The notes: a model not told the origin generated them from the sequence alone. Numbered from the stretch's first letter, positions 2,242-44,699 are shown. The stretch: DNA of 64,000 nt from an uncultured Methanosarcinales archaeon (GCA_964602245.1 CAZRPY010000001.1:88246-152245); one strand, 5' to 3'. Program-made: numbers and translations.

Positions 2242-3805
2242 GTTTATACACCCTTACAAGATCTTTATCATAGACAAGTGTTGCATTCTTTAAGTTATCT
2301 TGCTCCCATCTCTGTAGTGCATCTATTTCTGCCTTAAACCTTGAATCTTGCTGGCTTAATATTACGAAATCTGAGTAATCCAGCAAGACATAATCATGAT
2401 TACTTGTTATATCGTTTCTGACCCAGTCAATATGTCTTAAGCTTAAAGCTTGTATCCATTTCTTTTTAGTATAAACTACTGTCCCTTTTATCAGTATATC
2501 TGAATCTTCTGGAACATTCTTGTTCAGCCATTCCACTACTTGATATTCAAAAGGGGTTAGCCTTAGAATTCCTGTGTAAGCATTATTTAATGTGGAGTAA
2601 GAATTCTTTGCATTAATGGAGACAGCAATTAATAGGAAAACAGCTACAAGGAAATATTTCGCATATTTTTTAAAGTCTTGATTAAAATTGAATAAAGATG
2701 TTATTCCTAACAAGCCTAGAACTGCAACTGGGTAAAGGATATGTGCTTCTGTTTCAATAAACCTTTCTGCCCTAAACAGGCCAAAAACAAAGTCATGGCT
2801 CATAATGTAGAATGCTATTAGCCAACTAATTAGCAATAAATCTTCAGTTTTCCTTCTAAGTATAAGGAAAAGAATTCCTATTAGAAATAAAGGCAGAAGC
2901 CATGGAAACTTAAAATTTCCTAGGCTAATGAAGCCATGCATTTCATTAAAAGAGTAATAAGAATAAGGAACGCCAACTGGTTTAAGAACACCATACCAAT
3001 GAGGGAGGCTGTTTAAATGCTCAGGGTGGAAGCCAAAACCTGAACTGACAGCTCCAGTATAAATAGTACCTGTGCCAAAAGGAAATACATAAAATGGTAA
3101 AATTAACAGGAATGCAAGTGCTATGAAAATACTTATATCTTTGAGCTTAAGTGGAAGCTTCTTTTTCTTTAGATAAAATAAGACTGTAAAGATTGCTGTG
3201 ATTAAGAATGCTAGAATAATTGATTGAGGATGGATATAGAACTGGGTGGCAAGAAATATTGCTGCTAAATAAAGATAATGGGTTTTTTCATTATCAGTTA
3301 GGTATCTATAGAAGCAGTAAACAGTTAAAGGAACTATTGCAAATGATAATACTTGAGGATATTGGCCCCAGATATACCAAAGAATGTCTCTTATTGAGAA
3401 AATTAACAGGAAACTTGAGAGAAAGGCTGCTAGAGTGCCATATAAGTGCCTTATTAGCAGGAAGCTGGTAAAAACAATGACAAAATTGGAGAGTGCATGG
3501 AATAATAATATTCCTATAGTTCTGTTGGCTGAGAGAATTTGGTAGATGGCTGAGGTTAAATGAAACTGTGGAGGATACCATAGCTTGCCAGCTCCTTCAT
3601 CAACATAGCCGCCTGCAGCAATATAATAAGGCAGATAATAAGTAGCCTTATCTTTCTGGCCCATGTAATCTGCCAGAGTGAAATGTGTGCTGGAATCTAC
3701 ATCACCATATGGAACTAAATTGGTTTTGAAAGGCAGAGTCCAGAAGTAAAATGAAATAAGAAATAATACTACTAGAAGCAATAATTCAATGTTTTTCTTT
3801 TCCAT
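2225..3805 (-). CDS. large polytopic membrane protein, putative GT-C fold glycosyltransferase or polymerase
   Basis: 526 aa, more than 10 TM segments, acidic residues in the first loop (YGDVDSS). No WWDYG AglB motif. Confidence 0.45.
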   Translation of the reverse strand: MEKKNIELLLLVVLFLISFYFWTLPFKTNLVPYGDVDSSTHFTLADYMGQKDKATYYLPYYIAAGGYVDEGAGKLWYPPQFHLTSAIYQILSANRTIGILLFHALSNFVIVFTSFLLIRHLYGTLAAFLSSFLLIFSIRDILWYIWGQYPQVLSFAIVPLTVYCFYRYLTDNEKTHYLYLAAIFLATQFYIHPQSIILAFLITAIFTVLFYLKKKKLPLKLKDISIFIALAFLLILPFYVFPFGTGTIYTGAVSSGFGFHPEHLNSLPHWYGVLKPVGVPYSYYSFNEMHGFISLGNFKFPWLLPLFLIGILFLILRRKTEDLLLISWLIAFYIMSHDFVFGLFRAERFIETEAHILYPVAVLGLLGITSLFNFNQDFKKYAKYFLVAVFLLIAVSINAKNSYSTLNNAYTGILRLTPFEYQVVEWLNKNVPEDSDILIKGTVVYTKKKWIQALSLRHIDWVRNDITSNHDYVLLDYSDFVILSQQDSRFKAEIDALQRWEQDNLKNATLVYDKDLVRVYKLETRN

Positions 3806-4563
3806 TACTCACCTAAATGTATGTATTCACCATGAGTGAAAAAGCCTGCTAATTGTTTGATTCTTGCTATTTTTGGGAATAAATCCCTTTCTAAAGAGAT
3901 AATATTATTATCTATAAATTCAAAGATTTCTGGCTTAAGGATATAGATGCCTGCATTAACCACATGTGTTTCTTTTTTCTCACTTTTTTCTCTAAAGTCT
4001 ATAACCAAATCTCCATCTAGGATGGCTGAGCCGTATTCCGAGGGCTTTTCCCTAGTCATTAGGCCCATTGTCATTATTTTATTGTTTTCATTATGCTTCT
4101 TTATCATCTGTTTAATGTTGAAGTTATTATAAATATCTCCTGACATTGCAATAAAGGCTTTGCCTTTAAGTTTATCTGCAAGTGCTTTTAAAGCCTGTGC
4201 ATTGCCCTTTGCCTCTTTTTCTATAACTCTAAAGTTAACTTTTTCCTTGCCTGCTTCCTGTTCAATCTTTTCAACTAAATTACTGTGCTGTGTTACAAGG
4301 AAGATATTGGTTATGTTATTTGCTGCAAAGAAAGATAATTGATGCCTGATTAATGATTGGCCTTTAAATTCTTTTAATGCTATACTATGGTGTCTTCTGC
4401 TAAGCAATAGAACTGCAGTGTCAACTGCAAACTCACCAATGCCTTTAGATAAGAAATATTCAATAGCCTGAGATCTAGATCTTATTGTGCTGTTATCTAT
4501 TCTTGAATCTACTAAGTCTAATAGCTCTTTATCAATTGAAATTGCTATCTTTAGCTTTTTCAT
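3805..4563 (-). CDS. ribbon-helix-helix DNA-binding domain fused to a sugar-phosphate nucleotidyltransferase-like domain
   Basis: N-terminal RSRSQAIEYFL CopG/RHH signature, then an NTP_transferase-like fold. The Gly-rich loop is degenerate (AVLLLSRR instead of LAGGxGxRL). Confidence 0.6.
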   Translation of the reverse strand: MKKLKIAISIDKELLDLVDSRIDNSTIRSRSQAIEYFLSKGIGEFAVDTAVLLLSRRHHSIALKEFKGQSLIRHQLSFFAANNITNIFLVTQHSNLVEKIEQEAGKEKVNFRVIEKEAKGNAQALKALADKLKGKAFIAMSGDIYNNFNIKQMIKKHNENNKIMTMGLMTREKPSEYGSAILDGDLVIDFREKSEKKETHVVNAGIYILKPEIFEFIDNNIISLERDLFPKIARIKQLAGFFTHGEYIHLGE

Positions 4564-4574
4564 ACCTTTGCATA

Positions 4575-4590
4575 CCCCTATTAGTAGGGG
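4575..4590. promoter_or_regulatory. palindrome cccctattagtagggg immediately upstream of the RHH-NTase start
   Basis: 6-bp arms, 4-nt spacer, 12-27 nt upstream of the start codon at 4563. Confidence 0.3.
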
Positions 4591-4734
4591 ATAGAAGAGG
4601 GTATATAAAGGTTATTCTAAATAAATTCAATAGATTGTACAGAGGATAAAGTTACCTTGATTAATCTATCACTTGAATCATAGTAGTAGTTCTTCTTAAA
4701 GAATCGTACCTAAATCGAAAGATTTATATATCAA

Positions 4735-5031
4735 TTGATATATTATACTATTATGCAAAAGCTAATAAGAAAGAATCCATTTGTAAGATCGCCAACTTTA
4801 GAAACAGTGATTATGGTAGAGAAAGCTATTGATAAATATAGTGGTGAATTTAATAGAACTGAGTTATGGAAAAAACTTCCTAGAAAAGTAATGTGGCAGA
4901 CTTACCTTGTTATTCTTGATTATCTGCAGGATATAAATAAAATCGCAATTGATAGAGAGGGAAAGGTAGGCTATATATGGAATCCAGCACTTGCAAGGAA
5001 GCTTGCCAAAAGAAAGGAGATTAAGGTATGA
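4735..5031 (+). CDS. hypothetical protein, candidate antitoxin partner
   Basis: 4-nt ATGA overlap with the downstream RelE-like ORF. The track start is a TTG; the ATG at 4753 is preceded by a TATA-like box (tttatata, 4723-4730) and is the more likely start. Confidence 0.35.
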   Translation: MIYYTIMQKLIRKNPFVRSPTLETVIMVEKAIDKYSGEFNRTELWKKLPRKVMWQTYLVILDYLQDINKIAIDREGKVGYIWNPALARKLAKRKEIKV

Positions 5032-5354
5032 TTAAGCCTTCTAAAGTGATATTTATCTCTCAGAAATTGGAGAATAGTTTTAATGCTCTACCAAGTAATG
5101 ACTTTCTTAAGAAGTCCATGATCCGGGCAATTAAGGACCTAAAACAAAATGCTTTTGCAGGCGTACATGTTCCAAAAAGGTTAATCCCAAAAGAATACAT
5201 ACAGAAATATGGCATTAATAACCTTTGGAAGTATGATTTGCCTAAAGGATGGCGTCTTTTATATACAGTAACCAGTGAAAATGAAGTTGAACTAATTTCT
5301 GCAATACTTGATTGGTTTGACCATAAGGAATATGAACGGAAATTTAAATATTAA
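5028..5354 (+). CDS. RelE/ParE-family toxin-like protein
   Basis: C-terminal LWKYDLPKGWRLLYTVTSENEVELISAIL...HKEY matches the RelE/YoeB pattern LWKLR..YRvvYrv.de..l.v..v.hRkdvY. Confidence 0.5.
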   Translation: MIKPSKVIFISQKLENSFNALPSNDFLKKSMIRAIKDLKQNAFAGVHVPKRLIPKEYIQKYGINNLWKYDLPKGWRLLYTVTSENEVELISAILDWFDHKEYERKFKY

Positions 5355-5548
5355 AAATATGGTATGTCGTGCTGCTAGGCGACAGTGACCTATTAAAAAA
5401 GTGTTCTGGTTATTAGTCATTGGGCTTGTTATGCCAGCAGCTTGCTACATCTGATGTTATCTCCAAAAGATGCCATTTAATCTTATTATAATTTCTATCT
5501 TAATTAAATTTTTCCTAATACTTCCGATACATAACTTTTAAATAATAT

Positions 5549-6793
5549 ATGGCAATCTTTCTGGGTATGGATATTGATACTATGAGGAAGATAGATTATT
5601 GGGTAGGGATACCTGTATGCTTCTTTCTATCAATTATACATAATATTGGCAAGCTATTTAGAGGTAAAACTCGGGTAAAGAGTCCTAGGAAGTTCTTGTT
5701 TATGGAGATATCTGAGATGGGTAGCACTATTATTGCTTATTCTGCAATGTATTATATCAAAAAGAAGTATCTTGGAGCACAGCTTTACTTTCTTCTATTT
5801 AAAAGGAATAAAGAAAGCATAGATATCCTGAAAATAGTGCCTCAGGAGAATGTTATAACAATAAGAGATAGTTCTTTTCCAGCGTTAACTATTGATACGT
5901 TAGCAGCTATCTGGAAGCTTAGGAGAGAGAGGATTGATGTTTCATTCGACTTAGAGCTTTTTTCCAGATATTCTGCAATAATAAATTATTTAATAGGAGC
6001 TAAAGCTAGAGTTGGATTTCATAACTTTACAGCAGAAGGGCTTTACCGAGGAAATTTACAAACGCATGATGTAATGTACAATGCTTATTATCACATGAGC
6101 CAGAATTTTATGGCATTAGCTAAGGCATTAGAAGGGCCTGATGAAATACCTTTTCTAAAACAAGCAATAGATAAGAAAGAGGTTAAAGTGCCCAAGATAA
6201 TTAGCGAGAAAAGGGATAGAGAAGCTATAATCAAAAAAATACAGACATTAAATCCTGCAATCAATGAGAAAAAGAGAATAATATTGTTAAATCCCGGGGC
6301 TAGCAAATTGTTGCCATTAAGAGAATGGCCTCTGCAATACTATAAAGAATTGACAAAAAATCTGCTTGAGGATAAGAATAATTTTGTTGTTATAACTGGG
6401 CTTATAGGTGATAAGGCTTATGCACAGGAGATTTGTAAGTTTGCTGGAGATAAATGCCTTGATTTTACAGGAATGACTAAGACATTAAGAGAGTTAATTG
6501 ATTTGTATAATACTGCTGATGTATTAGTAACAAATGATTCAGGGCCTGCACATTTCTCTGCATTATCTGATATTAGAACAATTGTGTTTTATGGTCCTGA
6601 GACTCCTGTGCTATATGCACCTTTAGGAAGTAATTATACTGCTTTGTACTCAGGATTTGCCTGCTCGCCTTGTGTTTCTGCATATAATCATAGAAAAAGT
6701 CCATGCACTAACAACTTATGTTTGCAAGTGATAAAGCCTGAGGTTGTTCTTAAACTTATAAAGGATCATTTTAATGCAAGAGGAGATAAGTAA
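5549..6793 (+). CDS. glycosyltransferase family 9 (heptosyltransferase-like)
   Basis: LNPGASKLLPLREWP and VTNDSGPAHFSAL motifs typical of GT9. Confidence 0.8.
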   Translation: MAIFLGMDIDTMRKIDYWVGIPVCFFLSIIHNIGKLFRGKTRVKSPRKFLFMEISEMGSTIIAYSAMYYIKKKYLGAQLYFLLFKRNKESIDILKIVPQENVITIRDSSFPALTIDTLAAIWKLRRERIDVSFDLELFSRYSAIINYLIGAKARVGFHNFTAEGLYRGNLQTHDVMYNAYYHMSQNFMALAKALEGPDEIPFLKQAIDKKEVKVPKIISEKRDREAIIKKIQTLNPAINEKKRIILLNPGASKLLPLREWPLQYYKELTKNLLEDKNNFVVITGLIGDKAYAQEICKFAGDKCLDFTGMTKTLRELIDLYNTADVLVTNDSGPAHFSALSDIRTIVFYGPETPVLYAPLGSNYTALYSGFACSPCVSAYNHRKSPCTNNLCLQVIKPEVVLKLIKDHFNARGDK

Positions 6794-7892
6794 GATGCTG
6801 GTAAAGATTCTAGGCAGGATAATTAAGCCTAAAAATAAAAAGATTCCTGGAACAGTAAGGAACATACTTATTATTAGATCTGGTGCTTTAGGAGATGTGT
6901 TAATGACAACTCCGTTAATAGCTGCTATAAGAAAGAAGTACAAAAATGCTAAGATAAGTTATCTTGTAGGAGAGTGGTCTTCTATTGCTTTAAAAAATAA
7001 TCCTAATATTAATGAGATAATTGAATTTGATGATAGAATAATATTTCAAAGAAATATGGGAGAGATAATTAAACTAATTAGAAAAATTAGGGCTTTAATA
7101 TTTGATATTTGTTTTATATTAGATAAATCATATCATTGGAATCTTTTTGCATATCTTGCAAAAATACCATTTAGAATTGGGTTTGAGAGGAATGGAGAGG
7201 GGTTAGCTAATAACTTGGATGTTAAGTTTGATGCTAGTAAGCATGAGATTGAATATTATATGGATATTGCAAGGCTAATTGGAGTAAAAAATGCTAGCAA
7301 CGAGATGAAAATATTTACAACAGCGAAAGATAGGAAAAAGGTAAATAAATTCTTTAGGAAAAATAAGTTAATAAATAAGATTGTAATAGGTATTGCTGCT
7401 GGAGGGGCTGAAAATCCTGGACAGGCTATGTATGAAAAGAGATGGACGGTTGAAAAGTATATTGGGTTAACAAATATCTTGACTGAGAATCATAAAATAA
7501 TTGTGTTGCTGTTTGGGGGCAGGAATGATGCTAGTGTTAATAAGCTGATTAAGGAACAATGCTTGCATAAAAATCAAGTGTTAGATATTTCTAACTATAA
7601 CTTACATGAAGCTTTTGAAATGATGAAAAAATGCAGTTTATTTGTAACGCATGATTCTGGAGCAATGCATATTGCAGGAGCTTCCAAGGCTAAGCTAATT
7701 GCTTTATTTGGGCCAACTCAGGCAGAAAGGTTTGCTCCCAAGAATGCTATTATTATTAAGAGTCCTGCTGAAGGATGCCCTTGCTATGATATGTATGGCG
7801 ATTATAATAGGAAAGTTGCTGAGAAGTGTATGAGGGCTATCAGCGTTGATACTGTTTACCAGGAGATTAAGAAAATTATTAAGAATATTTAG
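6774..7892 (+). CDS. glycosyltransferase family 9
   Basis: IRSGALGDVLMTTPLIAAIRKKYKNAKISYLV and VTHDSGAMHIAGA. Overlaps the upstream gene by 20 nt; an alternative ATG sits at 6795. Confidence 0.8.
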   Translation: MQEEISKMLVKILGRIIKPKNKKIPGTVRNILIIRSGALGDVLMTTPLIAAIRKKYKNAKISYLVGEWSSIALKNNPNINEIIEFDDRIIFQRNMGEIIKLIRKIRALIFDICFILDKSYHWNLFAYLAKIPFRIGFERNGEGLANNLDVKFDASKHEIEYYMDIARLIGVKNASNEMKIFTTAKDRKKVNKFFRKNKLINKIVIGIAAGGAENPGQAMYEKRWTVEKYIGLTNILTENHKIIVLLFGGRNDASVNKLIKEQCLHKNQVLDISNYNLHEAFEMMKKCSLFVTHDSGAMHIAGASKAKLIALFGPTQAERFAPKNAIIIKSPAEGCPCYDMYGDYNRKVAEKCMRAISVDTVYQEIKKIIKNI

Positions 7893-9000
7893 AGGGATTA
7901 AATTGTATCAAGTTAACTGGAAGTATAAACCAATTTTGTTTATTATTGATATTATTGGATATGTAATTTTCTTCCCATATAGGATATTTAAAAGTAAAAT
8001 AAATGAAAATGAGATTAAGAAAATTCTAGTTATAAGGATTGATGAGATTGGGGATGTTTTATTGACAACACCTGTGTTCAGGGCTTTAAGGAGGAGGTTT
8101 CCTAAAGCTGAGATAAATGTGCTAATTAAGAAGGAGACTAAAGAACTATTGGAAAATAATCCAAATGTCGATAGCTTACTTATATGTGAACAGCCATGGC
8201 TTAAAAAGCCTATAAACTTGTTTTACTATTTCTCATTAATTAAGCAGTTAAGGAAAGAGAAATTTGATTTGGCAATAGAGCTGCATCCAGATGCTAGGAA
8301 TATTTTTCTAGGGTTTATTTCTGCAAGATGTGTTATAGGGCATACGTTTAGAGGCTTAGGTGTTTTGTTAGATAAAGTTACAAAGAGTAATCCTAATAAT
8401 GAACATATCATACAGCTTAATCTTGATGTTGCAAGATTAGTTAGAGCTAATGCTAGTGATGAATTAGAGGTGTATTATAGCAAAGAGAATGCGCAAAATG
8501 CTAAGAAGTTAGTTAGAAAATTAGGGAAGAAAATTGTTTGCATTAACCCTGGAACAGGAAGAGAGAGTAAGTTATGGCTGAATGAAAGATGGGCAAGATT
8601 AGCTGATGTCTTAATTGAGAAATATAATGTTCAGGTAATATTTACAGGAAGTAAGGAAGAGGAAGGTTTAATAAAAGACATCCAATTGCAAATGAGAAAT
8701 AAAAAGCAGACAATTAATTTAGCTGGAAAAACTAGTTTGTTGGATTTAGCTGCTTTGCTTAAGAAATGTAGATTGTTGATAGCAAGTGATTCAGGAACTT
8801 TACATATTGCAAAAGCTTTAGAAGTTCCATTAATAGGATTATATGGGGCTGTTAATCCTATGATATGGGGATATAATGATAAAAATGCCAGAAGTGTTTG
8901 CAAGGCTAAAGAGTTTAAAGAAAATAAAGGCAGGGCTATGATGGAGCTAATACAAATAGAGGATGTTTTGAAAGAGGTAAATGAATTATGGGAAAGGTAA
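7846..9000 (+). CDS. glycosyltransferase family 9
   Basis: IRIDEIGDVLLTTPVFRALRRRFPKAEINVLI and IASDSGTLHIAKA. No in-frame ATG before the conserved core; TTG candidates at 7846 and 7903. Confidence 0.75.
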   Translation: MILFTRRLRKLLRIFRGIKLYQVNWKYKPILFIIDIIGYVIFFPYRIFKSKINENEIKKILVIRIDEIGDVLLTTPVFRALRRRFPKAEINVLIKKETKELLENNPNVDSLLICEQPWLKKPINLFYYFSLIKQLRKEKFDLAIELHPDARNIFLGFISARCVIGHTFRGLGVLLDKVTKSNPNNEHIIQLNLDVARLVRANASDELEVYYSKENAQNAKKLVRKLGKKIVCINPGTGRESKLWLNERWARLADVLIEKYNVQVIFTGSKEEEGLIKDIQLQMRNKKQTINLAGKTSLLDLAALLKKCRLLIASDSGTLHIAKALEVPLIGLYGAVNPMIWGYNDKNARSVCKAKEFKENKGRAMMELIQIEDVLKEVNELWER

Positions 9001-9692
9001 AACTTAGCATTATAATGCCTGTATATAATGAAAGGCATACACTAAAACAAATAATAAAAGAAGTTATGCAACTTAATATTAAGGATGTAGAAAAAGAGGT
9101 AATAATAATTGATGATGGCTCAACTGACGGGTCAAGAGAAATATTAAAGAGCTTAGAGAGATTTGGCAAAGGAGATTGTAAAATATTCTACCATAGAAAG
9201 AATCTTGGCAAAGGAACTGCAGTTAATACTGGAATACAGAGATCTTCAGGCGATATAATAATAATACAGGATGCTGACTTAGAATATGATCCAAAAGAAA
9301 TACCTAAACTGCTTCAGCCAATAATAAATAATGAAGTAGAAGTAGTTTATGGCTCTAGATTCTTAAGACATCATAAGCCTCAATACCCTGTCTATTACTT
9401 TGGTAATATAGTCCTAAGCTGGGTAACAACTTTAATCTTTTTTACAAAAATCACAGATATGGAGACTTGCTATAAAGTTTTTAAAAGGGAGGTTATTAAA
9501 GATATTAAATTAAAGGCTAGAGGATTTGATTTAGAACCTGAGATAACAGCAAAAATTCTTAAGAACGGATATAAGATAAAAGAGTTATCTATTTCTTTTA
9601 GACCAAGGAAATTTGAAGAGGGTAAGAAGATAACATGGAAAGATGGACTTATGGCAATATTCTATCTACTAAAATATAGATTCTTTGATTAA
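8988..9692 (+). CDS. GT2 polyprenyl-phosphate sugar synthase (DPM1/GtrB-like)
   Basis: IIMPVYNE...IIIDDGSTDGS...DADLEYDP GT-A DXD architecture; 234 aa soluble form. Confidence 0.85.
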   Translation: MGKVKLSIIMPVYNERHTLKQIIKEVMQLNIKDVEKEVIIIDDGSTDGSREILKSLERFGKGDCKIFYHRKNLGKGTAVNTGIQRSSGDIIIIQDADLEYDPKEIPKLLQPIINNEVEVVYGSRFLRHHKPQYPVYYFGNIVLSWVTTLIFFTKITDMETCYKVFKREVIKDIKLKARGFDLEPEITAKILKNGYKIKELSISFRPRKFEEGKKITWKDGLMAIFYLLKYRFFD

Positions 9693-9780
9693 ATTATTTA
9701 AAAGATATAATTTATTTACCTATAATTTACTTATAGAATACAATATCTTTATATACTAAATATTAGTTTCTCGAATAAAG

Positions 9781-10920: not shown

Positions 10921-10959
10921 TCAATAAATTATATATATTACATCTGTAAATCCGTTCAT

Positions 10960-37524: not shown

Positions 37525-38577
37525 TCACAAATACTTCTCCACCTCTTCCATCACATCCTCATCCGTAATCTTCTCTAGGCTTTCTTTGTAGTTGCCTTTG
37601 GGGTTTGGGTTTGTAGAGTAGAAAGGATATTTAATTAATATTGGGCTTTTCTGGATAACAGAGACTTTCTTGCCATAGGGTTTTGTTCTATTAGGGTTGG
37701 CTGGGCCAAATAAGGCAATTACTGGAACTTGTTTGGCTGCTGCAATATGGCCTAGCCCTGAATCTGTGGAAATAAATAACTTACAATGCCAGATTAAAGC
37801 TGCATTTTGTTTTAAGGTATTGTCTTTAACTATAGTTACTTTATCTCTTGCACTGACATTTTTTAGTATTTCTAATGCTAAGCCTTTCTCATCAGGACCT
37901 TCAAATAATAATATTCTGGATTTGTCATATTTTTCTAAGATTTGATTAATTAGTTCGTTAAATCTTTCTTTGGGCCATCTTCTATAAAGTGCAGTTTTGC
38001 TTGTGCCAGGATGGATGCCTATTAATGCAAATTTGTTTAATGCATTTTTCTTAATAAAATCTAAAGCATATTTCTCATCTTCTTTTGAGGTTTCAAATAT
38101 TAGCTCTCTTTTTTCCTTATCTGTATTAATACCTAAATGTTCTATTAGATTGATGTTATTTTCAACGTCGTGCAATTTCTCTTCTGCAATTATAAGATCG
38201 TTTTGCAAAAAGCTTAGTCTGTTTCCTACTTTATACTTGTGAGTCAATCTTCTTTTAGCTCCTACTAGAAATGCAAATAAATTAAATTCATATCTGTTAG
38301 AGGGCATTGCTGTTATTGAAATATCATATTTTTCTTTTCTTAGCCTCCAAAGTAGCTTTATCCTGTTAAATATGCTGCCATTAAAAACTATTATTTTATC
38401 TATAAATTTACTATTGCTCATACATTCTGCGAAGCTTTTTTCTCTAACTAATAATGTAATTTCTGCTTTTGATAAATTCTTTCTTAATATTCTTAAAGCA
38501 GGTGTAAAAAGGATAGTATTGCCTATGCCTGACAAGCAGAAGATAATTATTTTTAGCTTTAGGTTCTTAAGTTCCAT
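37525..38577 (-). CDS. glycosyltransferase family 9
   Basis: GIGNTILFTPALRILRKNL and STDSGLGHIAAAKQVPVIALFGP motifs. Confidence 0.75.
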   Translation of the reverse strand: MELKNLKLKIIIFCLSGIGNTILFTPALRILRKNLSKAEITLLVREKSFAECMSNSKFIDKIIVFNGSIFNRIKLLWRLRKEKYDISITAMPSNRYEFNLFAFLVGAKRRLTHKYKVGNRLSFLQNDLIIAEEKLHDVENNINLIEHLGINTDKEKRELIFETSKEDEKYALDFIKKNALNKFALIGIHPGTSKTALYRRWPKERFNELINQILEKYDKSRILLFEGPDEKGLALEILKNVSARDKVTIVKDNTLKQNAALIWHCKLFISTDSGLGHIAAAKQVPVIALFGPANPNRTKPYGKKVSVIQKSPILIKYPFYSTNPNPKGNYKESLEKITDEDVMEEVEKYL

Positions 38578-38602
38578 ATAAGAAAAGAACTTTAAAGCAT
38601 TA

Positions 38603-39544
38603 TTAAGCTTTACTCATCTCTTGTCTAAAATATTCTATTGTTTTAGCTAAACCTTCTGTAAGCCCTACTTTTGGCTGCCAGTCTAGCCCTTTACTAGATT
38701 TAGCAATGTCTGGACATCTGACATGAGGATCATCTACAGGCAATGGCTTAAATACTATCTTGCTTTTGCTTTTTGTTAATTTAATTATCTCCTGAGAAAA
38801 TTCTAGAACTGTCATTTCATCTGGATTGCCTAAATTTACAGGATCATTTATCTTGGAATTCATTAATTTATAGATTCCATCAATTAAATCTGAGACATAG
38901 CAGAAGCTTCTTGTCTGCTTTCCATCTCCAAAAACTGTTATGTCTTGGTTTCTTAGAGCTTGGTTGATAAAAGCTGGGACTACTCTGCCATCATCTGCTC
39001 GCATTTTTTCTCCGTAAGTATTAAATATTCTAGCGATTTTTGTATCTATCTTATGAATTCTATGATATGCCATTGTAAGTGCTTCTGCAAATCTCTTGGA
39101 TTCATCGTAGCATCCTCTTAACCCAATAGGATTAACATTACCCCAGTAAGTTTCTGACTGTGGGTTTACTAACGGATCACCATAGACTTCTGAGGTTGAT
39201 GCTAGCATGAAAACTGCTTTCTTATCTTTAGCTAAGCCTAATAAGTTGTGAGTGCCTAGAGCTCCTGCTTTTAAAGTTTGGATTGGAATTTTCTGATAAT
39301 CAATAGGAGAGGCTGGAGAGGCGAAATGCAGAACAAAGTTTAACTTGCCTTCAACTGAGACATGCTTGGAAACATCATGGTCGACATAAGAGAATCTCTT
39401 ATGGCCCATTAAATGCTGTATATTTTTTAGGTTACCTGTTATTAAATTGTCCATGCAGATTACTTCATGTCCTGTAGCGAGCAGGAACTCGCATAAATGA
39501 CTGCCAATAAAACCTGCTCCTCCAGTAATAAGTATCCTTGTCAT
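38603..39544 (-). CDS. UDP-glucuronate decarboxylase (UDP-xylose synthase)
   Basis: [22 protein letters not shown]...[10 protein letters not shown], 313 aa, UXS-type extended SDR. Confidence 0.85.
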
Positions 39545-40290
39545 TTGAAACCTTTGAATTCGTTCTTTGCTGTCTCCAAAGCCTCTTTCCAGCCTACATC
39601 AAACCATTTTTCATTAAAGATTTTACCATATACAGGCTCTCTTCCTATAAGCCATATCATGAAATAGCCCATTTTATCAGCATTATTTCCATCATTGAGG
39701 TATTTTTCAATTAAATTAATTTTTTCTTTTGGAAAGAAGTAAGCGCCTTGAGAAATTAAAGTGGTTTTTGGCGTTGGAGATTTTTCCATAAACTCAATAA
39801 ATTTTCCGTCTTCATCAATAACTACAGTGCCTTGCTCCTGAGCAACCTTAATTGATTTTGAATCGTGTAAGGGATTGACAATAGCCTTTCGTTTCTTGAA
39901 TTCTTCAAACGCTGTCTTAAGTGAAAAATTAAAAAGATTATCCCCTGCAACGATTAAAAGGTCATCATTAATTTCTGCCTTTTCTAGAACGAAACTGATG
40001 TCGCCAATCTGGCCGAGTCTATTTTCATTTGAAGTTGTTTCATCATTATAAAGAGTTACTGGAACCTTACATTTGAAGGATTTGAGCCATTCCTGGAAGA
40101 TGCTGTGGAATTTCTGATTAGTTACTATATAAATATGGTTGACTTCTTCAATTGTAAGAATATTATTAATGATATGTTCAATTATTGGCTTATCATTAAC
40201 TGGAATCAATGGCTTGGGAGTTTCTTGAGTAAGTGGCCAAAGCCTGGTTGCATATCCAGCTGCTGGGATTATTGCTTTCATAAGAATCAC
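39541..40290 (-). CDS. sugar-1-phosphate nucleotidyltransferase (likely UTP--glucose-1-phosphate uridylyltransferase)
   Basis: [28 protein letters not shown] canonical GxGxR motif; 249 aa. Confidence 0.8.
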
Positions 40291-41576
40291 CTACCAACTG
40301 AGATGTACTTAAATCCTAGTTGTTTCATTTTTAGAGGGTCAAATATATTTCTTCCATCTATAATTATTTTTGTTCTCATTAGATCTCTTATTTTTTCAAA
40401 ATTTAGCTCAGAGAATTCTTTCCATTCTGTAAGGATAAGCAAGGCATCTGAATTTTCTGCGACTTGATAAGGATTATCATAATATTCTACGCCTTGCAAG
40501 ACTTCTTTTGCCTTTTCCTCTGCCTTTGGGTCATAAGCTTTTATTATAGCACCTTCATGCTTTAAAGTGTTAATGATCTCTATTGAAGGAGCACTTCTCA
40601 TATCATCTGTATTAGGCTTGAAAGCCAAGCCAAGAACTCCTATGTTTTTGCCTTTAACAATCCATAGTGCTTTTTCCACTTTTCTTATGAAATCAAATTT
40701 CTGTAGTTCATTGATTTCTTCAACTGCTTTTAGCAACTTAAAGTTATAGCCGTATTTATCAGCGATTTTAATGAAAGCTGCAACATCTTTTGGAAAGCAA
40801 CTTCCACCGTAGCCAATACCTGCATTAAGGAATTGTCTGCCTATTCTTTTATCATAGCCCATGCCATCTGCAACTTTTGTAACATCTGCTCCCGTAAGTT
40901 CACAAATATCAGCTATTGCATTAATGAAAGATATTTTAGTTGCTAAGAAAGAATTTGAGGCATGTTTAATTATTTCTGCACTTCTTATATCTGTTATAAC
41001 TATTGGAGTGTTTAAAGGCTCATAGAGCTTTTTCATTAACTCTGCAGCCTTTTCAGATGATGTGCCTATGACAATCCTGTCTGGATGAAAAGTGTCATAA
41101 ACAGCGCTGCCTTCTCTTAAGAATTCTGGATTAGAGACAACATCAAAGGGAACATTATTTATATTATACATTTGTATGGTTTCAGCAACCTTCTCGCCAG
41201 TTTCTACTGGAACAGTACTTTTTTCTACTATAATCTTATAGCTATCTAAATGCTCTGCAATGCTTCTGGCAACATTTTCAACATAAGAAAGGTCTGATTC
41301 ACCACTTTCTTTTGAAGGAGTACCTACACAGATAAAAATAATATCGCTTTTCTTAATAGCCTCTTCCATATTTGTAATGAAGATAAGTCTTTTGGCTTTC
41401 ATGTTTTTATGAACTAATTCATCTAAGCCTGGCTCGTAAATAGGGATAATGCCTTTATTCAAGTTTGCAATCTTGTGCTCGTCTATATCAACGCCTACTA
41501 CGTCATGGCCGAGCTCCGAGAGCATGGCAGCAGTGGTGAGCCCTACGTATCCAATTCCTACGATTCCAATCTTCAT
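40287..41576 (-). CDS. ugd: UDP-glucose 6-dehydrogenase
   Basis: MKIGIVGIGYVGLTTAAMLS NAD motif, GGSCFPKD catalytic Cys, 429 aa. Confidence 0.9.
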   Translation of the reverse strand: MKIGIVGIGYVGLTTAAMLSELGHDVVGVDIDEHKIANLNKGIIPIYEPGLDELVHKNMKAKRLIFITNMEEAIKKSDIIFICVGTPSKESGESDLSYVENVARSIAEHLDSYKIIVEKSTVPVETGEKVAETIQMYNINNVPFDVVSNPEFLREGSAVYDTFHPDRIVIGTSSEKAAELMKKLYEPLNTPIVITDIRSAEIIKHASNSFLATKISFINAIADICELTGADVTKVADGMGYDKRIGRQFLNAGIGYGGSCFPKDVAAFIKIADKYGYNFKLLKAVEEINELQKFDFIRKVEKALWIVKGKNIGVLGLAFKPNTDDMRSAPSIEIINTLKHEGAIIKAYDPKAEEKAKEVLQGVEYYDNPYQVAENSDALLILTEWKEFSELNFEKIRDLMRTKIIIDGRNIFDPLKMKQLGFKYISVGR

Positions 41577-41577
41577 T

Positions 41578-42780
41578 TTATTTACCTCTCACAGAATATT
41601 TTCCTAGAACAATTTGTTGCAGTTCATTTCTCTTTTTCATAGTACGTATAAGTTGTCTTAACCTAAAAGAGACATTAGAGTTCGAAGTGAAACAAGTTTG
41701 AATTTGATATAGAGTAATTGTTTTATTCGAGAAATTGGTTAATATGTGTTTTCTAATGGCTGTAGCTTCATCCTTCAAACGAGCTTTTCGTAGTGTGGTT
41801 TTAGCCATCTTTACTTTTCTTTGAAAAACTTCTTCTCTATGTAATAAACTTAGGTCATATTTTTTAAGAAGACTGAACAAACGAGAAAGTTGAATAACTC
41901 CTTCTGAGCTGATTCTTATGACCCACTTATCTCCTTTTTTATTTTTTGACCAAGATATACCGAATCTTGTTAATAATTTACCAAATTTTTCAAGAAGTAG
42001 TAAATTTCCCTCTTGATGTAATGTTATCTCAGAGTTTGACTTTGCTTTAGACATTCCAGCTTCATCCATAAAAAATGCGCACAAGAGAGCTAGCTCATAT
42101 TCTTTTCCTAGTGATTCAGATGCCTTAATTATATTACTTCTTATGGCCTTTCCAGAATCCAGTTTTGTCATAAATGATCCCGCCTTTCTGATTAACTGCG
42201 GGATAGTTAGACCATGTTTGGTGCTCTGTGGAAGTCTATCATAAATAAAACCCATCTTATTTAAGAGCTCTATTATTTTTAATTGCCCTTCTGGTTTTTG
42301 ATACCAAACAAATTTGTTTTTATCCTTTCGAATATGACCATCACCAACAGAGAGACAAAAAATAAAATGCCAAAGCGGGCTATATATGATGGGGAATTTA
42401 CCGGCGAAGGTGATTGAGCTACTTCCACAGTCATCGTTAAATTGTACTATTTCATTAAGAAGAGTCTTTTCTGCAGACAAATCTACAATCTTTTTAAAGG
42501 TTTGAGTGTCAATTTTTTCATTTTTAGTAAAGTTATGAAACCAATAATCAGGGACATTTAGAGTCTTAGCGATGTGAAATTTAAATCTATGGCTACTTGT
42601 TAAAAGATTTATTATGTCATCTTTTGCTTTATCGGTAAGTTTTACATACCCCAAAATATCCCAAGGAAATACTAAATTTTGATTTTGATTTTCCATAATT
42701 TGTCCAGATTTGGGAAAGTCAAATAAAAATGTATTGGATTTGGAATTTGGAAGTAAAACTCTCTTTAGCATCGTTCCCAT
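41578..42780 (-). CDS. double-motif LAGLIDADG-like protein (homing-endonuclease fold candidate)
   Basis: Two candidate motifs, FIFCLSVGDGHI and LLCAFFMDEAGMS, about 100 aa apart. 400 aa basic protein. Confidence 0.35.
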   Translation of the reverse strand: MGTMLKRVLLPNSKSNTFLFDFPKSGQIMENQNQNLVFPWDILGYVKLTDKAKDDIINLLTSSHRFKFHIAKTLNVPDYWFHNFTKNEKIDTQTFKKIVDLSAEKTLLNEIVQFNDDCGSSSITFAGKFPIIYSPLWHFIFCLSVGDGHIRKDKNKFVWYQKPEGQLKIIELLNKMGFIYDRLPQSTKHGLTIPQLIRKAGSFMTKLDSGKAIRSNIIKASESLGKEYELALLCAFFMDEAGMSKAKSNSEITLHQEGNLLLLEKFGKLLTRFGISWSKNKKGDKWVIRISSEGVIQLSRLFSLLKKYDLSLLHREEVFQRKVKMAKTTLRKARLKDEATAIRKHILTNFSNKTITLYQIQTCFTSNSNVSFRLRQLIRTMKKRNELQQIVLGKYSVRGK

Positions 42781-42850
42781 ATGGCTTTAGAATGCTGGCA
42801 TATTTAAATATCTTACCTTTATCCTACTTTATGCGATAGATTTAAATAGA

Positions 42851-43675
42851 GTGTTATATTTCTTGCAAATATCAAATATGAAAGAGAAGATTAGCATTAC
42901 AATTGAAAAGAACGTAATTGATGAGATAGATTCAATTATTGATAATATTTATATAAGGAACAGAAGCCAGGCAATAGAGCATTTGGTTAAGACTGCCCTT
43001 GGGGAGAATAAGATTGCTGTGATATTAGCTGGGGGACCAGAAGAACAGTTAAGAACAAGAACAAAAAAGTTTTGTTTTGAGCTTGAGGTTAAAGGACTTA
43101 GCTTAATAGAGAATGTTATTAAAAAGTTAAGAGACAGCAAATTTAAGACTATTTATATTATAGGGAGGCATGCTATTATTACTAAGATATTTGAGATAGT
43201 TAAAGATGGAAATGATTATGGTGTAAAAGTTAATTATTTTGAAGAAAAGATTTCTAAAGGAACTGCTGATTCCTTAAGAATCCTAAAAGGAAAGATAAAT
43301 ACTACATTTCTAGTGGTTTATTGTGATATATATTTTGGCAGAATAAATTTAGATGAGATTTGGAAGGATCATTTGAAACAAGGAGCTTTGTGCACTTTAA
43401 TGCTTACAACCTCTCCTAAGCCTAGTGAGAAAGGTACTGTTGTGGTTGAAGGAACTAAGATACTGCAGTTTATACAGAAGCCTAGGCAATCAGATATATA
43501 CCTAGTGTTTTCTCCTATATTTGCTGCTGAGCCTGAGATATTTGATTATGAGGGCAGTAGCTTGGAAAAAGATGTATTTTCAGCATTGGCTGAGAAAGGT
43601 TTGTTGAATGGGCATATGAGTTCAGAGAAAGAGATACATGTGAGGAGCAGGGAAGAGGCTGATAGGATAAGGTAA
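42851..43675 (+). CDS. ribbon-helix-helix domain fused to nucleotidyltransferase-like domain (paralog of 3805..4563)
   Basis: NRSQAIEHLV RHH signature, then AVILAGGPEEQLRTRTKK (degenerate G-loop) and an NTP_transferase-like fold. Confidence 0.6.
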   Translation: MLYFLQISNMKEKISITIEKNVIDEIDSIIDNIYIRNRSQAIEHLVKTALGENKIAVILAGGPEEQLRTRTKKFCFELEVKGLSLIENVIKKLRDSKFKTIYIIGRHAIITKIFEIVKDGNDYGVKVNYFEEKISKGTADSLRILKGKINTTFLVVYCDIYFGRINLDEIWKDHLKQGALCTLMLTTSPKPSEKGTVVVEGTKILQFIQKPRQSDIYLVFSPIFAAEPEIFDYEGSSLEKDVFSALAEKGLLNGHMSSEKEIHVRSREEADRIR

Positions 43676-43676
43676 A

Positions 43677-44699
43677 ATGCAAATTTCTAAGAAAGAATTA
43701 AATAAGCTAAAGAAGATTAGAGAAGAAATTAGAAAAAGTTCTTTTAAACCAATAGGTTGGATAAAAAATCCACATCTGCAAACTATAATAGGTGTTTCTT
43801 CTAAGTTTAAGGGAGAATTTGAGAGTAAAAGATTAATAATTCCTGTTGAGAAAGGAAAGGTTGCTGTAGATTGCTCATGGAAATTTAATAGAGAGAATAA
43901 GCCTACATTAATTATAATGCATGGAATTGTTGGATCTAGCTCTGCATCTTATGTTAAGAGAATTGCTTATAAAGCTTTTAAGAATGGGTTCAATGTTGCT
44001 AGAATAAATTTAAGAGGTTTTGGTAATACAGAGCATTTATCTGAGAAAATATATCATGCTGGACAGAGTAATGATATGAAGCGAGTAATAAATTATATGA
44101 ATAAGAAATATAAGCTCAGTAAATTTTATCTTTTAGGATTTTCTTTAGGAGGGAATTTGTGCTTGAAATTTGCTGGAGAATCAAAAGATAATAAGGTTAG
44201 AGGTGTTGCTTGCATATCGCCATTAGTTGATTTAGAAGTGAGCTGGAAGCCAATAGAAAATCCAGAGAACATACTTTATAGAGTAATATTTATCAAAGGT
44301 TTAAAAAATCTTATAAGAAGAAAGGCAAAACTATTTCCTAATATCTATTACCTTAAAAAATTAAAAGGTCTAAATACAATTAAAGATTTTGATGAGAGAT
44401 ACCAGGCATCTTTAAATGGCTTTAAGGATGCTATTGATTACTATAAGAAAACAAGTGCAATCAGGGTTATTAATAAAATTAGGATTCCTACTTTAATTAT
44501 TCATTCTCATGATGATACACTTACACCTTATGAGCCATTAACTAGAAAAGATGTTAGGGATAATCCTTATATTATTATTCTTATATCGCATTACGGTGGG
44601 CATGTGGGATTTCTTGGGAAAGATGAAAATGAGGATAGACATTGGGCAGAGAATAGAGTTATGGAGTTTTTTAAGATTCTAGAATCGCAAGGCTTTTAA
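43677..44699 (+). CDS. alpha/beta hydrolase (YheT-like)
   Basis: GFSLGGN nucleophile elbow; HG oxyanion region; 340 aa. Confidence 0.75.
   Translation: MQISKKELNKLKKIREEIRKSSFKPIGWIKNPHLQTIIGVSSKFKGEFESKRLIIPVEKGKVAVDCSWKFNRENKPTLIIMHGIVGSSSASYVKRIAYKAFKNGFNVARINLRGFGNTEHLSEKIYHAGQSNDMKRVINYMNKKYKLSKFYLLGFSLGGNLCLKFAGESKDNKVRGVACISPLVDLEVSWKPIENPENILYRVIFIKGLKNLIRRKAKLFPNIYYLKKLKGLNTIKDFDERYQASLNGFKDAIDYYKKTSAIRVINKIRIPTLIIHSHDDTLTPYEPLTRKDVRDNPYIIILISHYGGHVGFLGKDENEDRHWAENRVMEFFKILESQGF

Follow-up and report, generated by a model that had tools for sequence, protein, structure and literature searches.

Gene content of the locus

Our analysis concerns a 64-kb stretch of DNA, the window, from an archaeon deposited as an uncultured member of the Methanosarcinales (GCA_964602245.1, CAZRPY010000001.1:88246-152245; 64,000 nucleotides), and in particular a block of genes at 3805-44699 which the original prediction, made from the sequence alone, had described as an island for building and decorating a glycan. 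The window is densely coding and has a GC content of 33%. All of its open reading frames (ORFs) of at least 100 residues were scanned against Pfam, and selected ORFs were also searched against NCBIfam and the sequences of the PDB. These profile searches confirmed the predicted gene list almost entirely, and the gene content supports a cluster for glycan biosynthesis and decoration by way of lipid carriers. The genes that could supply, transfer, carry and modify sugars are given below (GT, glycosyltransferase; TM, transmembrane; SAM, S-adenosylmethionine).

Nucleotide-sugar supply:
38603-39544, minus strand: UXS (human UXS1, E 1.6e-105, 356 bits over residues 3-310)
39541-40290, minus strand: AglF-like sugar-1-phosphate nucleotidyltransferase (NTP_transferase E 7.7e-32; best NCBIfam match AglF)
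40287-41576, minus strand: UDP-glucose 6-dehydrogenase, UGDH (all three domains, E 2e-73, 1.5e-37 and 6e-40)
15025-16431, minus strand: WecB-like UDP-sugar 2-epimerase homologue with an enlarged N-terminal domain (Epimerase_2 E 4e-37; PDB 4neq E 5.5e-24)
17748-18683, minus strand: GalE-like NDP-sugar epimerase/dehydratase of the SDR family (Epimerase E 1.2e-45)
46176-50668, minus strand: GlmS, archaeal GlmU-like protein and phosphogluco/mannomutase, GlmM-like (SIS and GATase; NTP_transferase and Hexapep; PGM_PMM I-IV)

GT9 proteins (Pfam PF01075):
5549-6793, plus strand: paralogue a (E 2.1e-25, 89.9 bits)
6774-7892, plus strand: paralogue b (E 2e-25, 90.0 bits)
7846-9000, plus strand: paralogue c (E 4.5e-39, 134.7 bits)
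16669-17730, minus strand: divergent GT9-like protein with Cys-rich termini (E 4e-12, 46.4 bits)
37525-38577, minus strand: paralogue e (E 6.6e-34, 117.8 bits)

Lipid-carrier enzymes, GT4 and flippases:
285-647, plus strand: small protein with four TM segments (no Pfam match)
8988-9692, plus strand: soluble DPM1/AglJ-like GT2 of the polyprenyl-phosphate hexosyltransferase type (Glycos_transf_2 E 1.6e-36)
9781-10920, plus strand: ArnC/DPMS-like GT2 with four C-terminal TM helices (Pfam E 3.9e-26; precomputed GT2_TM_C match)
24586-25698, minus strand: GT4 glycosyltransferase (Pfam; 73% identical in L077)
25785-27236, plus strand: Wzx/AglR-type lipid-linked oligosaccharide flippase, 12 TM helices (Polysacc_synt E 7.7e-35)
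30937-33709, plus strand: four-gene module of a 145-residue TM protein, a YdjM-like membrane hydrolase, the GtrB-like GT2 and the PF03706 protein (Pfam, TM helices)
31861-32745, plus strand: GtrB-like GT2 with two C-terminal TM helices (Pfam)
32756-33709, plus strand: PF03706 flippase-like protein (Pfam)
53421-54659, minus strand: membrane GT2, to the right of 3805-44699 (Glycos_transf_2 E 1.9e-36)

GT-C membrane proteins:
2225-3805, minus strand: GT-C-like glycosyltransferase, nine TM helices and a C-terminal soluble domain, ending at 3805 (hhalign to the 624-residue family)
10960-12525, plus strand: PMT_2/ArnT-like GT-C with ten TM helices, closing the GT9-GT2 operon (PMT_2 E 4.4e-5, 24.2 bits; cut-off 26.1)
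27239-29113, minus strand: predicted GT-C-fold protein of 624 residues (no Pfam match; predicted structure and Foldseek)
54666-56108, minus strand: putative distant GT-C relative (hhalign to the 624-residue family, 87%)
56110-57609, minus strand: putative distant GT-C relative (hhalign to the 624-residue family, 90%)

Tailoring enzymes:
934-1716, minus strand: SAM methyltransferase, to the left of 3805 (Methyltransf_23 E 1.5e-21)
12532-13440, minus strand: SAM methyltransferase (Methyltransf_23 E 3.7e-22)
23820-24527, minus strand: SAM methyltransferase (Pfam; 80% identical in L077)
13601-15007, plus strand: class B (B12-binding) radical SAM protein 1 (Radical_SAM E 3.6e-29, B12-binding E 6e-19; CLFGCVYC at residue 211)
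21551-23757, plus strand: ferredoxin-DUF4346 (pterin-binding-like) protein and, starting at 22189, B12 radical SAM protein 2 (PterinBD-DUF4346 E 7e-18, Fer4_15; Radical_SAM E 2.9e-23, B12-binding E 9e-13)
35581-37014, plus strand: class B radical SAM protein 3 (both Pfam domains; CPYRCTYC)
29233-30933, plus strand: O-carbamoyltransferase 1, NodU/TobZ family (Carbam_trans_C E 4e-63, Carbam_trans_N E 5e-45)
33712-35415, minus strand: O-carbamoyltransferase 2 (Carbam_trans_C E 7e-64, Carbam_trans_N E 2e-59)
19014-20642, plus strand: GMC-like flavoprotein (28.3 bits with GMC_oxred_C and 23.4 with GMC_oxred_N, barely over the cut-offs; FAD Rossmann motif)
20639-21493, plus strand: SDR protein translationally coupled to the GMC-like gene (66% identical in L077)

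The UXS, AglF-like and UGDH genes are joined by stop/start overlaps of 4 nucleotides and form, to judge by their sequences, a cassette leading from UDP-Glc over UDP-GlcA to UDP-Xyl; the UDP-Xyl cassette of the original prediction is confirmed by the match to human UXS1 and the three-domain UGDH. Pfam likewise confirms the WecB-like and GalE-like epimerases, which score 160 bits with the NCBIfam wecB model (cut-off 210) and 137 bits with galE (cut-off 262). The three expected DPM1-like GT2 enzymes are all there (8988-9692, 9781-10920 and 31861-32745), as are the single GT4, Wzx and the PF03706 protein. For 8988-9692 the best NCBIfam match is AglJ, at 108.9 bits and under its cut-off, and 9781-10920 finds ArnC (9hwj, E 3e-17) and Pyrococcus DPMS (5mlz, E 1e-16) in the PDB.

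The sequence encodes, then, a nucleotide-sugar supply, five GT9 proteins, one GT4, an AglJ-like GT2 and Wzx, and at least two membrane-anchored GT2 enzymes of the ArnC/GtrB type are placed beside GT-C enzymes and the PF03706 flippase-like protein. We consider it probable that the block is the main part of a lineage-conserved Woesearchaeota cluster which builds an oligosaccharide on carriers of the dolichyl-phosphate type, tailors the chain and brings it out to the cell surface. Its product is possibly heptose-containing.

Conservation, extent and ancestry

The nearest named relatives of the 7846-9000 protein are 'Candidatus Woesearchaeota archaeon' proteins, and for this reason we take the host, on sequence grounds, to be a Woesearchaeota-type DPANN archaeon. 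According to its label, one close relative is a groundwater metagenome-assembled genome (MAG). Several matching MAGs carry the label 'Methanosarcinales', which we distrust; one of them is a complete 774-kb chromosome.

About 28 kb of the window (285-12525 and 20639-37014) recurs in two other Woesearchaeota, mostly at 50-91% protein identity. The first is GCA_016188215.1, on whose contig JACPIF010000008.1 our loci L002 and L078 are contiguous, and the second is L077, a contig from a Joint Genome Institute (JGI) metagenome. Over 285-12525 the matched genes are 49-76% identical to L002 at the protein level and comprise the 4-TM protein, a small TM protein, a GT-C, a ribbon-helix-helix (RHH) nucleotidyltransferase-like protein, the three tandem GT9, the AglJ-like GT2 and the GT-C at 10960; inserted or unmatched are 934-1716 and a pair of small ORFs at 4735-5354, and 9781-10920 has only a paralogue-level match of 32%. 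By tblastn the 4-TM protein of 285-647 is 61% identical in L002, 48% in L003/L008 and 41-42% in L009/L018, in which its gene shortly precedes that of the AglJ-like GT2. The segment 20639-37014 is colinear with L077 at 57-91% identity; its orthologues in L078 are 52-88% identical, and it partly continues into L002. Within it the order of the four-gene module at 30937-33709 is preserved in both L077 and L078, where its proteins are 57-84% identical. Conservation is highest in the tailoring enzymes (radical SAM proteins and carbamoyltransferases), with 81-91%, against 57-58% for Wzx and 66-67% for the PF03706 protein, as can be seen from the following identities.

Radical SAM 35581: 91% in L077, 86% in L078
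Carbamoyltransferase 33712: 89% in L077, 85% in L078
Carbamoyltransferase 29233: 85% in L077, 81% in L078
Radical SAM 22189: 88% in L077, 86% in L002
Wzx: 57% in L077, 58% in L078

Both relatives hold a third carbamoyltransferase between Wzx and GT4 that the window genome does not have. In the regions fetched from the two relatives no counterpart was found for the stretches at 12.5-20.6 kb and 37-44.7 kb, and in this comparison only these two look variable.

The limits of the block also need revision. To judge by its gene content the cluster reaches left to at least 285, and a left end at 3805 cuts a conserved module; on the right it probably extends through the UDP-GlcNAc genes (46176-50668) and the GT2 and GT-C genes to about 57.6 kb. 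Three SAM methyltransferases and four to five GT-C proteins had been counted for the block. Three and five are present in the whole window, but 3805-44699 includes only two of the methyltransferases, the third being at 934-1716, and only two GT-C proteins lie wholly inside it; the third GT-C ends at 3805 and two more are found at 54666-57609. Translationally coupled gene runs occur at 5549-12525, 19014-23757, 29233-33709 and 37525-42780. Housekeeping genes in the flanks of the window encode RadA, a RadB-like ATPase, ribosomal protein S2, NFACT and an RPA-like OB-fold protein.

The term island, if taken to mean accessory or foreign DNA, is not supported. Toxin-antitoxin-like and LAGLIDADG-like ORFs do lie inside the block, and outside the archaea the closest relatives of its GT9, small GT2, carbamoyltransferase and WecB-like proteins belong to Omnitrophota and Planctomycetota; both observations would suit a recent horizontal acquisition from bacteria. 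This explanation is largely refuted and we now hold it to be very improbable. The GC content is 0.332 inside 3805-44699 and 0.327 outside, with corresponding values of 0.274 and 0.270 at third codon positions (GC3), so that neither measure distinguishes the block from the flanking housekeeping genes; the 64-kb window contains no tRNA, the Pfam results for its ORFs include no integrase, and there is no evidence of flanking repeats. The bacterial homologues are only 25-48% identical, against 50-91% for the archaeal orthologues, which keep the same order over 20639-37014, and in three of the five GT9 paralogue clades more than one archaeal genome is represented by several members. A genomic island would be expected to stand out in composition, to be bordered by mobility genes or a tRNA and to be missing from close relatives, and none of this is seen. 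Because its composition equals that of the flanks, integrase or tRNA borders are lacking and its segments recur in two relatives, the cluster is, as far as the sequence can tell, a chromosomal and lineage-conserved one with variable parts, neither strain-specific nor foreign.

Nor is the enzyme mix, which had been supposed to be unusual for an archaeon, unique to this genome. GT9, GT2, methyltransferase, B12 radical SAM, GT4 and Wzx genes recur around GT9 in 12 archaeal loci (18 GT9, 14 GT2, 14 methyltransferase, 10 GT4, 10 radical SAM, 6 Wzx and 5 DUF6541 genes in all), and a similar mix is found in Omnitrophota and Planctomycetota. With one genome scanned per species, the clade of 7846-9000 comprises 65 loci, 12 of them archaeal with 37-71% identity and labelled Woesearchaeota or Nanoarchaeia, apart from the dubiously labelled 'Methanosarcinales' MAGs; the remaining loci are all bacterial, at no more than 35% identity, and are headed by Omnitrophota and Planctomycetota, Omnitrophota appearing first. 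In a quick neighbour-joining tree, calculated without support values, the five GT9 paralogues fall into five separate clades, and four of them neighbour different Omnitrophota, Planctomycetota or FCPU426 genes, often of the same bacterial loci.

These bacterial loci share more with the cluster than GT9. A small GT2 that is 43-48% identical to 8988-9692 lies upstream of the GT9 gene in 16 of them, mostly adjacent to it; homologues of the carbamoyltransferase 33712-35415 (38-42% identity) occur in 15, in several next to GT9, and WecB-like genes in 10, B12 radical SAM genes in 4 and methyltransferases too. The uncharacterised Omnitrophota and Planctomycetota loci (L014, L021, L024, L033 and others) also have PMT_2 genes in common with the cluster, and differ from it in their Bac_transf initiators, Wzy_C ligase/polymerase and many GT4 genes; in one Omnitrophica locus GT9 stands beside LpxK and a lipid-A acyltransferase. 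These neighbours suggest that the GT9 genes descend from bacterial polysaccharide or lipopolysaccharide (LPS) core genes of the Omnitrophota/Planctomycetota type. Since the nearest bacterial GT9 relatives lie in loci with a similar enzyme mix, the mix is a recurrent bacterial neighbourhood; its transfer to the Woesearchaeota seems to be old and probably involved several linked genes at once.

The GT9 proteins and their sugar donor

As predicted, there are five GT9 proteins, all above the PF01075 gathering score of 22 bits, and their mutual identity is only 21-31%. The family is a bacterial-type one here, and none of the five reaches the NCBIfam equivalog cut-off for LPS heptosyltransferase I, II or III (HepI, HepII, HepIII). 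Closest comes 6774-7892, with 132.0 bits against HepII (cut-off 134.6), the others being far below. The 7846-9000 protein matches 3tov (E 3e-29), WaaF and WaaC in the PDB. Our literature search found no dedicated study of GT9 or heptosyltransferases in archaea or DPANN.

We aligned the paralogues with WaaC, WaaF, WaaQ and WaaU of E. coli, and residues are given in WaaC numbering. The equivalents of Asp13, Lys192 and Asp261-Ser-Gly...His266 (DSGxxH) are all retained in 6774-7892, and those of Asp13, Lys192, Asp261 and His266 in 7846-9000, where they are D70, K242, D315 and H320. The remaining three are altered. A Ser occupies the Asp13 position in 5549-6793, and the orthologues in L002 (75-76%) and L006 (78-79%) also read EMGST. 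In 37525-38577 the position is Asn, with DSGxxH retained, and the genes closest to it in the tree, from Omnitrophota and Planctomycetota, have Glu there. The divergent 16669-17730 has lost the D-S/T-G donor motif, reading AVTMAMH, and forms an orphan long branch in the neighbour-joining tree.

A four-Cys motif near the C-terminus (consensus CSFC-x4-C-x8-C in the alignment) is found in many members of the 5549-6793, 6774-7892 and 16669-17730 clades; 16669-17730 bears an additional N-terminal Cys cluster, and 7846-9000 has lost the C-terminal motif. By analogy with the iron finger of autotransporter heptosyltransferases, which it recalls, the motif may be a metal site.

The window contains no homologue of GmhA, GmhB, HldE or WaaA, which confirms the absence of a heptose pathway from it. 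Relatives give a different picture. In L009, GmhA- and HldE-type genes (GmhA 210.0 bits, cut-off 209.45; HldE kinase domain 344, cut-off 345; adenylyltransferase domain 179.5, cut-off 181.5) lie directly upstream of an orthologue of 6774-7892 with 37% identity, and L018 has the same arrangement (37%). In L013 (OZ246410.1, 15021-18697) there are an HddA-like kinase, a GmhA-like isomerase, a fused HddC-like nucleotidyltransferase/GmhB phosphatase and a transaldolase, of which the transaldolase scores 318.8 bits (cut-off 281.95) and the others stay under their equivalog cut-offs; these genes share a 21-kb locus with three GT9 genes and lie about 4 kb downstream of the nearest one. They resemble the pathway to GDP-D-glycero-alpha-D-manno-heptose (GmhA, HddA, GmhB, HddC) known from producers of S-layer glycans and capsules; none of the genes of this pathway is in the window. 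L013 is part of an archaeal 774-kb chromosome labelled 'Methanosarcinales', a label that looks wrong. All three loci have heptose genes and no WaaA.

Because L009, L018 and L013 place genes for nucleoside diphosphate (NDP)-heptose in the loci of GT9 orthologues, the archaeal GT9 clade is, by gene neighbourhood, genuinely linked to NDP-heptose, and this by two types of pathway. Functional NDP-heptose enzymes have been reported from archaea, their use being left open (PMC11461863, PMC11573728), and the N-glycan of Thermoplasma acidophilum contains heptose (PMC11407970), which provides an archaeal precedent. Where an NDP-heptose pathway exists, the GT9 enzymes most likely transfer heptose. The question of the donor, which the original prediction had left open, is partly answered in this way for the relatives; for the window itself, without heptose genes, either the NDP-heptose pathway lies outside of it or the GT9 donor would have changed.

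The second of these possibilities would make the GT9-like enzymes transferases of donors made by the cluster (UDP-Xyl, UDP-GlcA, UDP-GlcNAc/ManNAc or UDP-Gal), which move no heptose and build a heptose-free glycan. Such a switch is compatible with the cluster assembling a lipid-linked glycan, and we regard it as quite conceivable, at somewhat less than an even chance. GT9 in CAZy includes GlcNAc transferase activity, and the full UDP-Xyl cassette and UDP-GlcNAc genes are at hand. The shortfall of all five paralogues from the heptosyltransferase cut-offs, the changes at HepI catalytic or donor-binding positions in three of them, with the Ser substitution kept in orthologues, and the missing GmhA, GmhB and HldE genes all point in the same direction. 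On the other side, DSGxxH and Lys/Arg192 are retained in four of the five, orthologues of 6774-7892 and 7846-9000 share loci with complete or near-complete NDP-heptose sets in L009, L018 and L013, and the 64-kb window is just a part of a contig some 298 kb long.

A comparison with heptosylation of the bacterial LPS inner core (WaaC, WaaF and WaaQ, using ADP-L-glycero-D-manno-heptose) shows the same two sides. PF01075, relatives of GT-B fold, the Asp13, Lys192 and D(S/T)GxxH residues in 6774-7892 and 7846-9000, and GmhA/HldE beside orthologues in relatives are shared. The cluster differs in its archaeal host, in having no WaaA or lipid A genes, in scores below the HepI, HepII and HepIII cut-offs, in the three altered paralogues and in the acceptor, which we suppose to be a polyprenyl-linked glycan in place of Kdo2-lipid A.

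GT-C proteins and the acceptor

The 624-residue protein of 27239-29113 has at least 498 homologues; those listed are 37-49% identical, most of them near full length, and every homologue with a named source is a hypothetical protein from Woese-, Nano- or Pacearchaeota. The family has a nearly invariant loop motif, YPYLEDDDSWxH, with an acidic EDDD stretch of the sort that GT-C enzymes have in their first outer loop. An AlphaFold2 (AF2) model built with 50 homologues has a predicted local distance difference test score (pLDDT) of 89.6 and a predicted template modelling score (pTM) of 0.92. Since Foldseek matches the model to STT3 (E 1e-9, TM-score 0.50), DPY19, AglB, PglB, AftA and ArnT (E 1e-9 to 4e-5, TM-scores about 0.45-0.5), the protein is, according to the model, a GT-C-fold enzyme of an uncharacterised family. 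Membership of the STT3 family was considered and rejected, as there is no PF02516 match, no WWDXG motif and no match to the true AglB of L003. The protein is conserved at the level of a core enzyme, and has no Pfam family or described function.

The 2225-3805 protein aligns with this family by hhalign with a probability of 93.7% (E 1.9e-7, 392 columns). It is 63% identical to its L002 orthologue and 35% to that of L003, which has precomputed DUF6541 and weak PMT_2 matches. The 10960-12525 protein is not linked to the 624-residue family (hhalign 19%), and its 60%-identical L002 orthologue carries a PMT_2 match; for 58310-59653 the hhalign probability is 0.1%, which gives no link either. Pfam searched to E 5 returned nothing useful for 27239-29113, 2225-3805, 54666-59653, 30937-31374 and 37072-37524. 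The pair 54666-56108 and 56110-57609 belongs to a second group of glycan membrane genes (53421-57609), across which, at 52000-58000, GC falls to 0.27-0.30, the sole compositional dip in the window.

The acceptor of the GT9 enzymes had also been left open. In L003/L008, from a marine Woesearchaeote, a 1153-residue STT3/AglB with a WWDFG motif is encoded immediately upstream of the orthologue of 7846-9000; none of the other archaeal loci examined contains an AglB-like protein. The most economical acceptor would be a polyprenyl-linked oligosaccharide. A different possibility is that the product is no N-glycan and is a membrane-anchored glycolipid or lipoglycan, resembling LPS core on an archaeal lipid, with the 624-residue or another GT-C protein as final ligase or as an AglB-independent O- or C-type protein glycosyltransferase. 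The ancestry of GT9 in bacterial LPS and polysaccharide loci with LpxK, a Wzy_C ligase and Bac_transf would fit this, as would the lack of AglB in the window and the lineage-wide core status of the 624-residue enzyme, whose structural matches include both protein-modifying (STT3, DPY19) and lipid-modifying (ArnT, AftA) enzymes. It is countered by the AglB adjoining a GT9 orthologue in L003/L008, by the absence of WaaA and lipid A genes from the window and by the heptose-containing N-glycan known from Thermoplasma (PMC11407970), and we think such a product rather unlikely.

Tailoring enzymes

The predicted capacities for xylose and uronate supply, methylation and carbamoylation are all encoded. 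All three class B radical SAM proteins have Radical_SAM and B12-binding domains and a CxxxCxxC motif, at residues 211, 215 and 205, and both Pfam domains are present in each of the two NodU-family carbamoyltransferases, as expected. Finer assignments are not given by the models: the nearest NCBIfam models for the radical SAM proteins, HpnJ and BchE, score less than half of their cut-offs and no functional subfamily cut-off is reached, and the carbamoyltransferases score 141 and 133 bits with the NodU equivalog (cut-off 1000). Full-length PDB matches of 29233-30933 are 7xb6 (E 3.7e-62), TobZ (E 1.7e-59), NovN and GdmN (E 1e-55 to 1e-62 for the group). The predicted GMC flavoprotein does match its family, only weakly; in the PDB it matches the C-terminus of an FAD-glucose dehydrogenase (E 1.6e-4), and the gene was not found in L077, where its SDR partner is present.

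The gene for the ferredoxin-DUF4346 protein adjoins that of radical SAM protein 2 in L002 (18202-20391) and L077 (17079-19462) as well, with identities of 80% for the former and 86-88% for the latter. Because it always adjoins this one particular B12 radical SAM gene, the arrangement suggests a dedicated partner for electron or methyl supply. The DUF4346 domain resembles the C-terminal part of MtrA.

The B12 radical SAM and GMC families occur in aminoglycoside clusters, and the best PDB matches of the carbamoyltransferase 29233-30933 are to the antibiotic enzymes TobZ, NovN and GdmN. One could thus read the tailoring genes (TobZ-like carbamoyltransferases, GenK-like B12 radical SAM, GMC and SDR proteins) as a pathway to a secreted small molecule of the aminoglycoside kind. 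We consider this extremely improbable, as the Pfam results for the window include neither a 2-deoxy-scyllo-inosose synthase nor an aminotransferase, and as the tailoring genes alternate with those for Wzx, GT-C, ArnC/GtrB-like GT2 and PF03706 proteins in an order that is conserved.

Remaining ORFs

The remaining features of the block and its border are the following.

3805-4563, minus strand: protein with an RHH-like N-terminus and an NTP_transferase fold (NTP_transferase E 8.9e-22 from residue 62); candidate regulator or atypical sugar-1-phosphate nucleotidyltransferase
4735-5354, plus strand: two overlapping small ORFs (98 and 108 residues), a toxin-antitoxin-like insertion (weak ParE/YoeB Pfam matches of the second ORF, E 0.03-0.05)
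41578-42780, minus strand: soluble 400-residue ORF with two LAGLIDADG-like motifs (Pfam LAGLIDADG_3 only, E 0.024)
42851-43675, plus strand: second RHH-NTP_transferase-like protein (Pfam; weak NikR-like N-terminus)
43677-44699, plus strand: alpha/beta hydrolase (Pfam)
44724-44840, plus strand: 5S rRNA gene (Rfam RF00001, 79.4 bits, E 3.3e-15), bounding the right end of 3805-44699

The two RHH-NTP_transferase-like proteins have an RHH-like start of about 45 residues (...RSRSQAIEY/HL) and a degenerate GGxGxR nucleotide-binding signature, which could mean that they are nucleotide-sugar-sensing transcription regulators rather than enzymes. They are 31% identical to each other, and 3805-4563 is 76% identical to its counterpart in L002, which also stands beside the GT9 triplet. 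In the window the pair at 4735-5354 separates this divergently oriented gene from the GT9 operon, whereas the corresponding interval in L002 measures just 284 bp. In relatives, different toxin-antitoxin modules lie in or beside the cluster: PIN and RHH genes in L078, MazE in L077 and ParE in L003.

The LAGLIDADG-like motifs of 41578-42780 are FCLSVGDGHI and LCAFFMDEAGMS. Its gene sits between UGDH and the second RHH-NTP_transferase-like gene, is absent from the relatives' loci, and its product has no PDB sequence match; a single-sequence AF2 model was unusable (pLDDT 41.7). It is probably not a component of the pathway and may be a homing-endonuclease-like insertion, the LAGLIDADG reading itself being a guess. 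The 5S rRNA gene stands alone directly after the alpha/beta hydrolase gene, with no 16S or 23S rRNA gene in the window.

Proposed pathway and its relation to known systems

A lipid-linked pathway of the kind proposed above could run as follows. The AglJ-like GT2, or an initiating enzyme encoded elsewhere, would prime the lipid carrier, GT9 and GT4 enzymes would lengthen the chain on the cytoplasmic face and Wzx would flip it. In parallel, side modules like those of Arn and Gtr could provide single sugars: an anchored GT2 would make a lipid-phosphate-monosaccharide, which a flanking carbamoyltransferase may modify and the PF03706 protein would flip, so that a neighbouring GT-C could add it outside the membrane, as in the Arn/Gtr and AglD/AglS modules. 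The SAM methyltransferases would methylate the glycan, and the B12 radical SAM enzymes might C-methylate it or rearrange it by radical chemistry. In the last step an AglB encoded elsewhere would attach the glycan to surface proteins, or else a GT-C ligase would transfer it, or it would go to a lipid.

Pathways of this general kind, in which archaea assemble glycans on lipids, are already known. With the Agl N-glycosylation systems of Haloferax volcanii and Methanococcus the cluster shares an AglF-like nucleotidyltransferase, an AglM-like UGDH, an AglJ-like Dol-P GT2, a Wzx/AglR-like flippase and AglP-like SAM methyltransferases, a GT-C that is possibly AglS-like and fed by an AglD-like GT2, and, in one relative, an AglB beside a GT9 orthologue. 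It differs from them in having GT9 instead of or besides GT2 and GT4, in its three B12 radical SAM proteins, two O-carbamoyltransferases and UXS, and in having no AglB in the window and no protein that reaches an Agl equivalog model. The likeness to the Arn (ArnC-ArnD-ArnE/F-ArnT) and GtrABC systems lies in the TM-anchored ArnC/GtrB-like GT2 beside a flippase-like membrane protein and a GT-C, with a carbamoyltransferase encoded on both sides of the module at 30937-33709. Here the difference is that no ArnD, ArnE/F or GtrA was detected and that the flippase candidate is a PF03706 protein.

Several observations weigh against the cluster as we read it. Three of the five GT9 paralogues depart from residues that are essential in E. 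coli HepI (Ser or Asn for Asp13; D-T/S-G lost), and GmhA, GmhB and HldE are missing not only from the window but also from the clusters of the two closest relatives (about 62 kb examined). There is no AglB in the window by PF02516, by a WWD[YWF]G motif or by BLAST and phmmer with the L003 AglB, and the adjacency of AglB to GT9 is seen in one species only (L003/L008). No initiating phosphoglycosyltransferase is among the Pfam results for the window, sequence does not disclose what chemistry the B12 radical SAM proteins perform, and the GT9 tree is a quick one without support values.

A bolder version of the pathway would have the Woesearchaeota capture a bacterial core-oligosaccharide GT9 set, in some lineages with NDP-heptose genes, and use it on dolichol-linked acceptors to make a heptose-containing, C- and O-methylated and carbamoylated surface glycan, with the GT-C of about 600 residues as a second, AglB-independent transferase. 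We put this forward tentatively, as a possibility that is more doubtful than not. If it is true, the GT9 enzymes would be the missing consumer of archaeal NDP-heptose, and an archaeal envelope would for the first time be seen to re-use chemistry of the LPS-core type.

What we regard as new is the conservation of the cluster within the Woesearchaeota, its Omnitrophota-type ancestry, the link of GT9 to NDP-heptose genes and AglB in relatives, and the lineage-wide GT-C family. Archaeal surface glycans are chemically very diverse and the surfaces of DPANN archaea mediate attachment to their hosts, yet to our knowledge DPANN archaea have not been studied for surface glycans. The GT9 genes that stand beside NDP-heptose genes, and once beside AglB, in relatives offer a concrete and testable candidate for the use of archaeal NDP-heptose. 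The cluster also points to a widely conserved and unannotated GT-C family, to a conserved pair of ferredoxin-DUF4346 and B12 radical SAM proteins, and to an ancient exchange of several genes between ultra-small bacteria (Omnitrophota) and ultra-small archaea.

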